Origin: Raja brachyura | Lineage: Eukaryota | Assembly (NCBI GenBank): GCA_963514005.1 | Contig: OY740821.1 | Span: forward strand, 13,082,001-13,146,000 | Reading direction: 5' to 3' | Length of the DNA stretch: 64,000 nt | Part shown: positions 24,901 through 27,900 of the stretch, in pieces | How positions within the stretch are numbered: position 1 is the first letter of the stretch | Layout of the letters: each line of letters opens with the position of its first letter | Program-made: the position numbers and the translations under genes | Notes under the pieces: model-generated | What the model was told of the DNA's origin: nothing | What the model saw: the letters and a program-made list of their open reading frames with translations, nothing else | The model's database searches: none

Positions 24901-27900
24901 CACCCTTAATCATTAATTCATATCCAACAGTACACTCTTTGAAAGGTACGATTCAGTGTCACCCTGTATGTGAAGCCAGAAATACCTCATCTGTAAAGAA
25001 CTCTGGTTCCAAATGAAATCATGGTCAGTGTTTAAAATTGACAAAAATGCTTTAGAATCACATTTTTCCTTCCAAGTTCTCCCATCTGGGTGGGGATCAT
25101 CCAGGTTTAAATGGTGAGGTGTGGAGGGATGTCGTGTTGCTCAGTAACATCTGTGCATTATGCAACTGAGCAGCCTCCACTGCAACCAATTCTGACCAAA
25201 ATATGTTCTACAAAATCAGTGGTTGAAGACTTCTTACAGGTGAGGTCTTTCAGGAGGTGCAAACAATAGCAGTCAAAGCAGGATCAAAGTGCTGATGGGA
25301 ATGGATGTTATTGTGCGGTGATCAAAACAGTGGCCAATGAAAGCATTGATAAAGACACACAAGGCGCATCACAACTCTGGGACATAGGGCTGGTGGAAGC
25401 AGATGATGTAATTGAGTGCCTGTTAATTTCAATACAGTATTAAAAATAAATAGATATTTCCGTGGTACCCTGAACAACAGGGATGATACATAACAAGTGC
25501 CATGACATGGAGTACAACATAAAGATCAGACTGGGACCTAGTCCAGTATTTCACATCCTGCAGTCTACCAGTATTTTCCTTCTACACCTCGGGGCAACTA
25601 AACTCTCCCTGACAGTACTCAATAGCCTTTCCAGGAGCCTGTATTTTCAGCACAAACACAGAACAGCTTTTCTTACTGTACTAAAACGTTATACCCCAGT
25701 TGTCACTTTAGAGCACACTTACACTATGGATCCAATATCACTGCAATGAGACACACACGTTATCTTGGTTTGTCCATTTCACATTGTTTCCATCCAAATG
25801 CTTCCCAGACAATTTGACCCATTTCTTGTCACCAGCAAGCTGCTTTCTGTCTTTCTTCTCTGTTCTGTCCCTTCTTCTCCTGGGGTCATTGCTGGGTTCA
25901 ATTTGACTAGTGCAAGCCATGCATTTGTAACGGGCAAGCTGAGGCCAGGAGTGCCACTGGATTGGATGGCCAGAGATAGTATCCTGTTCAGTTCTCCACT
26001 GCCAACCCTTGCATAGTGGGAACACCAGTTGATTCCCAGCAATCCTCTCCTATCCCCTCCCAATAACTCAATTCCAAATACCAAAGGTAGGAGCCCATTA
26101 ATGAGAGCACAATCAGGGATTAAAAGCCAGTAGGGATTCAATTCAGGCAACATAGCAAGTCAGACAGTATTAGGTATTGTATATCGCACCTTCTAATTTA
26201 ATTCAATTCTGATGGATGGTATTAAGTACCAGATGCTGATGAAGGCGCCATTGACTTGAAAGACTAACTGTATCCCTTCCCACATATTCTGCCCGATGTG
26301 CTGAGTATCTCCAGCATTCAATTTTTATTTAGTTCCACTAATTGCAGATGAGCTGACTAATGGCTGGCACCCATAACAGGAGACCAAGACCATCAATCCT
26401 GCATTGCAGTACTGTCCACGGCAAATTACTTGCAACTCTGCTGTTGGATGCACACAGCCTTTTCAACAACACAAACCACCAGACAGGGGATGCTCACAAC
26501 TACCATTCGAAACAAGAGGTGAAACCCCCTGATTGATGCAGCCTCCTTCCCCACATAGATCTCATGTTGCACTTGCATGTCACAGCTCTAATTTGAAGGG
26601 GTGGTGGGGAGAGGATGTTACCTATTGTGTAATGCTTTGATGGGGGCCATCCAAGGATAGCGAGAGCAATCCAGCCCAGTGGGACCCTTACACCTGTATT
26701 ATAATCAGAATAAGAGAAAGGTCATGAGGAGGCATGCACACACGCAGACCGTCAATGGTACCTATGGACAACTTCGCCACAATCCGCTGCATCAGAACCT
26801 CGGCACCTGGTGGCATGGCAACACAAAAGAAAACAAGTTAAAAATCACACAGCAGTTCTTGTCAAGGAAGTGACAACCTGGTTAGCAACATCAATTCAGA
26901 TCCTGGACAGACACCCACAGTGCATTGAGTCGGCATCAACAGATCGCACTCGAGCATTACCTCTTTGGTGTTCATTGGATAAAAAGCTCGAACTTGACAA
27001 TCTTCATCTAGCTGTGCGGGGAATCAAGGCTGTCATTGTCTGCCCAGGAGCGGTTTCTCTGCTATATAGAAACATATAGCAGAGAAACCGACCCTTCGTC
27101 CCACCTCGCCTATGCAAACAATGATGCCAGTCCTGTAGTGTGATGAACAGGACTGGACGAGATACTCCAAGTGCGGTCTAATCAATCTTTATACAGTGCA
27201 ACATAACATCGTTTTGCTCTCTACCTGCTCCTGGCTGTTGGAGATCAGAACCCTGTCCTCACCATACTGTGGTACAAAGTCCAGGCAGCATTACCAAATG
27301 GAAACTTTCTGCCTGCTGTATCATGAACTCCAGGGGTTTGGTTCTCCCCAGCATTAGGACTTTGTAGAACCACCATTCAATGAGTCCAGGTGCTCATTAT
27401 TTATGCAGGAGTTTCAACACTTGAATTCTGCCCAGTTCTTTGGCTTCATGAGGCAATGGAGTTAGGTCTGATTCAGTTGGCTCAATGTCCAATGTAGATA
27501 CTTCGAACAGGGGTCGTTGTATAAAAACTAGACTAGAGCACACATTCATCGACTGATTTCTGACCTTCAGGTGGAGAATGGGAGGAGGTGGGTCAGCTTA
27601 TTCAACAAGGAGGTTGTGCTCCCCCCTTGAACCCCATTGTATGTGTTGAGAGTCCAGAAAAAACTGTCCCCATAAACACTCTACACCTGCTTCACAACAC
27701 TGAGTGGTTAAAAAAATGTTCACACCCATGGGAATGTTCACAACCTGTCAGACTGTTACCCACCCCACACAACCGTCCTCTATTGGGCAGCACAATGGTG
27801 CAGCTGCAAGAGCTGTCGCCTCACAGCGCCAGACATATGGGTTCCATCCCGACCTCGGGTGCTGTTTGTGTGGAGCTTGCATGTTCTCCCTGTGACCGCA

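Follow-up and report, generated by a model that had tools for sequence, protein, structure and literature searches.

Alternative stalk exons in skate ERBB3 and their probable kinship with the juxtamembrane cassette of ERBB4

The closest described system is human ERBB4, in which a 45-nt JM-b exon is reported to precede a 75-nt JM-a exon by 121 nt, the two being mutually exclusive, with an exon 15 of 155 bp (PMC2944867). For the JM-a form, cleavage by TACE at His651-Ser652 is reported to precede that by gamma-secretase (PMC3382207), and residues S630 and H631 have been tied to STAT5a signalling in ERBB4 (PMC9663514); mouse heart is described as using JM-b and kidney JM-a (PMC9471956). In a screen for gamma-secretase cleavage ERBB4 was the only ErbB recorded as positive, human ERBB3 giving no fragment, and signalling through shedding and gamma-secretase is considered peculiar to ERBB4 among the ErbBs (PMC5662267). 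A second relevant system is PTK7, a pseudokinase receptor reported to be cut by ADAM17 and gamma-secretase, and thus a precedent for a signalling fragment freed from the intracellular part of a catalytically dead receptor, but it has an unrelated ectodomain and the account of it describes no comparable splice switch (PMC13259870). The long ERBB4 stalk was taken in 2006 to serve a tetrapod function by Stein and Staros, who reported only the short form in teleosts (PMC1618406).

We analysed a window of 64,000 nt from the genome of the skate Raja brachyura that contains most of an ErbB gene, which we assign to ERBB3 (Table 1). Two tandem phase 2-2 exons, 68 nt apart on the minus strand, are present exactly where a preliminary description of this DNA had placed them. 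Each encodes a C-x7-C pattern in an open frame bounded by an AG acceptor and a GT donor, and both flanks are in phase 2 (exon 15 ending at 28279 and the transmembrane exon starting at 22236). The polypyrimidine tract that had been ascribed to the short exon is only partly evident, as the final 15 nt before the exon are of mixed composition and the sequence is rich in pyrimidines farther upstream. A crude pattern of AG, C-x7-C, open frame and in-frame GT has six start sites on the minus strand of the window and three on the plus strand, and the pattern by itself is therefore not rare. The two exons nonetheless exceed chance, because both are 100% identical to RefSeq isoforms of Amblyraja radiata (the long exon in isoform X1 and the short exon in isoform X2), because they recur in sharks, rays, chimaera and coelacanth, and because the short exon is found in spliced contigs. 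The cassette is a real, conserved and spliced feature.

Table 1. Positions of ERBB3 features in the window, and of related features elsewhere in the skate genome.
Feature	Position	Strand	Remarks
ERBB3 coding span, exon 2 to last exon	6654..60328	-	exon 1 outside the window, at L028:4449-4514
ERBB3 exon 15, 155 nt, constitutive	28279..28433	-	ends in phase 2; matches human ERBB4 exon 15 in length
Short stalk exon, 45 nt, phase 2-2, JM-b position	26762..26806	-	CAG acceptor, GTACC donor; 14 residues + R
Intron between short and long exons, 68 nt	26694..26761	-	
Long stalk exon, 72 nt, phase 2-2, JM-a-like	26622..26693	-	CAG acceptor, GTAAC donor; 23 residues + R
Long-exon donor TAG/GTAACATCC	26613..26624	-	12-mer also at the end of the decayed JM-a in skate ERBB4
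Exon 17: membrane-proximal residues, transmembrane helix, basic intracellular juxtamembrane segment	22101..22236	-	
Kinase exon opening with Glu at the alphaC position	19763..19948	-	primate ERBB3 has His
Kinase exon with HRNLAARN catalytic loop	19427..19582	-	Asn for catalytic Asp
PA2G4 exons downstream of ERBB3	L023:6846-7196 and 9024-9446	-	ORF listing of flanks
Decayed JM-a of skate ERBB4	G000:C7:53323790-53323869 (L006:490-569)		JM-a-like end and donor kept; Cys pair lost; 11-C run inside

The arrangement follows that of ERBB4 in having two phase-2 exons between a 155-nt exon 15 and the transmembrane exon, the short 45-nt one upstream, each encoding the last Cys pair and used singly; the long exon also has the aromatic-Pro-Trp motif of JM-a and, like it, ends in H-x-R. 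The stalk from the last Cys to the membrane is ~19 residues in the long form and ~10 in the short form, which is near the human JM-a and JM-b stalks. The skate cassette departs from that of ERBB4 in being hosted by an ERBB3 pseudokinase, in the lengths of the long exon (72 nt, compared with 75 in human) and of the spacer (68 nt, compared with a reported 121; PMC2944867), in not keeping the His-Ser site and S630/H631, and in its short peptide, which has little but the Cys frame and the final Arg in common with JM-b.

The preliminary description had called the host gene ERBB3, and the phylogeny agrees. With stalk and tail removed, the chondrichthyan proteins are sister to bony-vertebrate ERBB3 with support of 100 in both FastTree (41 rows and 974 columns, three partial representatives excluded) and IQ-TREE (an LG+G4 quick search with 23 of 44 chosen rows and 967 columns), and trees in which they are forced to group with ERBB4 are rejected (AU p = 0.002); the skate row in these trees is the Amblyraja protein, which is near-identical to the window's exons. 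Replacement of the catalytic Asp by Asn in the HRNLAARN loop is an ERBB3 mark, and the best solved-structure match of a ray ortholog is human ERBB3 (alignment to chain 7mn5_A). Exons of PA2G4 (EBP1) lie 20-23 kb past the low end of the window on the same strand as ERBB3, and the two genes are likewise neighbours in human. These exons were recovered from the ORF listing of the flanks; a Pfam PF00557 profile search of the genome missed PA2G4 on the ERBB3 contig (C42), and probing the flanks for synteny with fused marmot and thrush models gave no matches. The genome has a separate ERBB4 on contig C7, with an exon 15 that is 98% identical to Amblyraja ERBB4, and an EGFR-like gene on C2; ERBB2 was unmatched among the best-scoring candidates in two exon searches of the whole genome, in which these three ErbB genes were found. 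The skate gene thus shares with bony-vertebrate ERBB3 its position in the tree, the HRN loop and the PA2G4 neighbour, and differs from it at two other traits. The alphaC position is Glu in skates and Asp in shark and chimaera, compared with His in gibbon and sturgeon, and the skate tail of 277 residues has two YxxM and two NPxY motifs, compared with six YxxM in gibbon ERBB3. The alphaC His and the five to six YxxM sites of ERBB3, both absent from the skate protein, look from these comparisons like refinements of bony vertebrates that do not overturn the orthology, and skate ERBB3 looks like a less derived pseudokinase.

Conservation of the frame and the Cys pair across species had been named as a check on the cassette, and both are conserved. 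Among 49 public annotated ERBB3 models from 22 species (21 chondrichthyans and the coelacanth), 28 carry the long exon, 16 the short exon and five neither or a partial one; none carries both, rare double inclusion being below the reach of these data. Both types are represented in 11 of the 22 species among the models listed, and as two model clusters were sampled at 15 of 26 and 15 of 21 members, species with a single type may be under-sampled. We are highly confident that the two exons form an either-or cassette. A 12-residue stretch of the long exon is invariant in all 17 elasmobranch species with a long model, and the skate long exon is identical to those of three other elasmobranchs at 22-24 of 24 residues, where the ectodomains are 86-91% identical. 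Chimaera ERBB3 has both exons in diverged form, and coelacanth ERBB3 has a long form in one older prediction (P0007), the current one giving a short form of 18 residues. Other bony vertebrates differ, as none of 154 annotated ERBB3 proteins (coelacanth excluded) has a JM-a-like stalk; their stalk is encoded by one exon of 16-19 residues that resembles the coelacanth short form.

Splicing of the cassette was followed in assembled contigs from three runs presumed to be RNA (X1, X2 and X3, from two organisms and two studies) and one DNA run (X6), mapped on 21600-29600; the joints within contigs were inferred from coordinates and depths rather than read from joint rows. Exons 14 and 15 are joined across a CT..AC gap in X1, X2 and X3 but not in X6, and the first three are therefore spliced and RNA-like. 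A 5831-nt contig of X2 has 43 letters between its exon 15 and exon 17 parts which, with two shared letters (GT), make up the 45 nt of the short exon. The mean depth of the bin 26673-26939 equals the contig depth multiplied by 43/267 to two decimals in both X2 (4.84) and X3 (6.55), and in X1 it is 2.67, as expected after a second contig is added. The main spliced contigs of all three runs hold the short exon alone. The second X1 contig (depth 3.3, compared with 15.1) begins 29 letters before 26691, of which 27 are from exon 15 and two are GT, and extends to 26414, which fits exon 15 spliced to the long-exon acceptor with the next intron retained; three X1 contigs meet at a single 30-letter branch. 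Of the junctions that the preliminary description had offered for checking, those that place the short exon between exons 15 and 17 are thus recovered, 28279>26693 fits this one minor contig, and 26622>22236, joining the long exon to exon 17, is not seen in the contigs of X1, X2 and X3. Cover on the long exon is zero in X2 and X3, which we do not count as evidence of silence, and inclusion of the full long exon is taken from automated gene models. Very high-copy SINE-like repeats at 27741-28110 (intron 15) and 21660-21700 (near exon 18) swamp the read-mapping tables.

The long exons of ERBB3 resemble JM-a of ERBB4 more than they resemble their own neighbours. The mean local score is 51.2 between the ERBB3 long exon and ERBB4 JM-a, the latter group having only two sequences, compared with 29.1 between the long and short exons of ERBB3 and 34.3 between JM-a and JM-b. 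For the tail after the second Cys, the score of long exon against JM-a is 25.2, compared with 15.9 for shuffled sequences, and is reached by seven of 2000 shuffles. The short-exon peptide scores 27.7 against ERBB4 JM-b and 27.9 against the single stalk exon of EGFR (399 of 2000 in the tail test), and, its likeness to JM-b being no greater than that to EGFR, its identity as JM-b rests on position, length, phase and splice-site context, the two exons having in common 45 nt, their place in the gene, their phase, an ATAG/GTA donor and a downstream TGCATG. The proposal of an ERBB4-type JM-b/JM-a pair therefore stands for the long exon as a homologue of JM-a, and for the short exon in its position and context but not in its peptide. 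In the skate genome the distance from short-exon end to long-exon end is 140 nt in ERBB3 and 146 nt in ERBB4, and the long-exon donors of the two genes agree at 9 of 12 positions from +3 to +14, compared with four to seven at five other homologous donors.

Pairing across the two genes rather than within each points to one cassette before the ERBB3/ERBB4 duplication. The earlier suggestion that the switch is older than this duplication is supported by the cross-gene pairing of the long exon with JM-a together with the ERBB3 phylogeny, and on sequence grounds the two cassettes very probably share ancestry. The EGFR-like gene of the skate has a single 42-nt stalk exon, and most simply the short exon would represent the old single ErbB stalk exon, of which the long exon would be a tandem copy made before ERBB3 and ERBB4 duplicated. 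Lamprey and hagfish genes branch outside ERBB3 plus ERBB4 (node support 99-100; cyclostome placement 82-93), and none of the 20 annotated cyclostome ErbB models listed has a long-type or JM-a-like stalk, so that the copy likely arose in the jawed-vertebrate stem. Lineage-specific loss would then have left the long exon in ERBB4 only in tetrapods, in ERBB3 only in elasmobranchs, in both genes in chimaera and apparently in neither in ray-finned fish, the losses in bony vertebrates being read from annotated proteins and not from genome scans. The reading that we consider probable is that the cassette descends from the ERBB3/ERBB4 ancestor with its exons used singly; the long form would then be open to ADAM and gamma-secretase cleavage and the short form would not.

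Skate ERBB4 has an intact JM-b at C7:53323670-53323714. Approximately 146 nt past JM-b there is a stretch closing in Gln-His-Ala followed by AG/GTAACATCC, and the 12 letters across its donor (C7:53323858-53323869) recur unchanged at the donor of the ERBB3 long exon; this 12-mer is present once on the minus strand of the window and once in 100 kb of the ERBB4 locus. The last six codons of the remnant tie for first place, and are not alone there, in matching the JM-a end among 1485 GT sites. The Cys pair is absent from every frame and the frames that resemble JM-a are broken by stops; the length of the 11-C run inside the remnant determines whether a short frame lacking Cys is open there. When the long exon is compared as DNA with the 26-kb ERBB4 intron, the remnant is not above background among 1308 windows, so that its position, its donor and its last codons carry the case for it. 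A tblastn search with three peptides of the JM-a type, covering the initial 45 kb of the ERBB4 stretch and the initial 20 kb of the EGFR-like stretch, found no intact JM-a ahead of the transmembrane exon of skate ERBB4 or in the EGFR-like stretch. Elasmobranch ERBB4 models (n=27) comprise 24 with JM-b, three in which the stalk is skipped and none with JM-a, in a sample that took 15 of the 68 members of the largest ERBB4 cluster and in which JM-a is rare overall (5/149). These counts are suggestive of an elasmobranch ERBB4 without JM-a; chimaera ERBB4 has both exons. It is conceivable, if on the doubtful side, that the stalks have been swapped in elasmobranchs, such that ERBB4 lost JM-a and became locked in an uncleavable form, and the ERBB3 pseudokinase, having retained the long stalk, would be the ErbB that undergoes shedding and frees its intracellular domain. 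If so, regulated intramembrane proteolysis would be an ancestral option of the ERBB3/4 progenitor that was kept by opposite paralogs in tetrapods and elasmobranchs.

Three other accounts of the cassette can be weighed against common descent from the ERBB3/ERBB4 ancestor. Were the gene an ERBB4 paralog, a JM-a/JM-b pair would be expected in it, and the names of most chondrichthyan entries and a tail with two NPxY and two YxxM motifs rather than the six YxxM of gibbon ERBB3 could be read in that way; the ERBB3 clade with its support of 100 and AU p of 0.002, the HRN loop, the adjacent PA2G4 and a true ERBB4 elsewhere on C7 make this exceedingly improbable, and we take it to be refuted by the trees and the PA2G4 adjacency. 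Copying of the long exon between ERBB4 and ERBB3 after their duplication, by gene conversion or exon transfer in early jawed vertebrates, might account for the 12-letter donor identity and for the PWM(A) motif common to chimaera ERBB4 and elasmobranch ERBB3, both of which are high for so old a split. However, the two genes are on different large contigs (C42 and C7), both have the whole cassette in the same order, phase and spacing, and presence of the exon in chondrichthyan and coelacanth ERBB3 would put a transfer at the base of jawed vertebrates and at almost the same date, and we regard it as unlikely. Mutually exclusive exons often originate by tandem exon duplication, and the stalk exons of the two genes might have been duplicated independently and then converged, an idea that draws on the short exon's want of specific likeness to JM-b. 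Copies made in this way should most resemble their same-gene neighbours and the opposite is seen (51.2 across genes, 29.1 and 34.3 within them), and the same donor letters are present in both genes; this account is very unlikely, and already largely refuted by the local scores.

By analogy with ERBB4, the long form would undergo ADAM shedding followed by gamma-secretase release of the pseudokinase domain, to which the short form would be resistant, and we give shedding of the long isoform something close to an even chance. The main rival, which is a credible one though short of probable, is a change of geometry or location: the cassette would be ancestral, but the long stalk would not be cleavable and would instead alter stalk length and with it dimer geometry, membrane location or glycan contacts. 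In ERBB4, differences between JM-a and JM-b in STAT5 choice and in location are reported that do not depend on cleavage (PMC9663514), and the near-total invariance of the long-exon tail is as compatible with a binding surface as with a protease site. The human His-Ser cut dipeptide is absent from the skate long exon, which also counts towards altered geometry, but the cut position varies even among ERBB4 JM-a exons (Gln-Ser in bird and His-Ala in chimaera), and the screen found no consensus among cleavable receptors. Similarly, the failure of human ERBB3 to yield a gamma-secretase fragment (PMC5662267) fits an uncleaved stalk, but human ERBB3 is without the long exon and the screen as reported is no test of it. 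The residues linked to STAT5a are also not kept, the equivalents of S630/H631 being Gly-Leu in the skate long exon, which tells against the geometry account.

Both isoforms are already known in the sense that they are in RefSeq as unnamed X1/X2 models, and no paper on alternative stalk exons in ERBB3 was among the matches listed in the open-access literature. Most chondrichthyan ERBB3 RefSeq proteins are named 'erbB-4-like' or 'erbB-4' despite their position in the ERBB3 clade, and this may be the reason that the cassette escaped notice. What is new is a skate ERBB4 with JM-b but only a decayed JM-a remnant, which the preliminary description had not remarked on, and the lack of JM-a in all 27 elasmobranch ERBB4 models. 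The presence of both exons in chimaera ERBB4, together with the ERBB3 data, contradicts the reading of JM-a as a tetrapod feature. A homologous cassette in the ERBB3 of sharks, rays, chimaera and coelacanth suggests that it arose earlier than the ERBB3/ERBB4 duplication and that human HER3 is the gene from which it was lost, and the decayed JM-a of skate ERBB4 points to opposite losses in two lineages, as duplicate genes divided an alternative exon between them. The long- and short-stalk forms are natural HER3 variants with which to ask if stalk length alone makes an ErbB cleavable, and they may also bear on whether a released pseudokinase domain signals, with the mechanism borrowed from ERBB4.

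As for how one exon is chosen, joint inclusion of both would add 117 nt and stay in frame, and exclusivity therefore cannot be enforced by decay. A candidate explanation is steric: the likely branch point of the 68-nt intron would be 37-40 nt from the donor, too close for the two exons to be joined. Steric interference has been assessed with a limit of 50 nt between donor and branch point (PMC5740500); the candidates at intron positions A37 and A40 fall under it and a further one at A51 is borderline. A TGCATG, which we take to be an RBFOX-type element, is present at intron positions 24-29 (26738-26733), at +24 after the short exon, and another is at +22 after JM-b in skate ERBB4; this placement was noticed post hoc, against a background of ~1 copy per 1.6 kb in these introns. 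RBFOX proteins bind TGCATG and promote use of the upstream exon, and the element just downstream would favour the short exon where these proteins are expressed. No paper linking RBFOX to JM choice was among the matches listed in the open-access literature.

Rare models skip both stalk exons, as in the JM-c form of ERBB4. These include a ray ERBB3 and shark and skate ERBB4 models (P0002, P0500, P0502 and P0503), and the predicted proteins would lose the last Cys pair.
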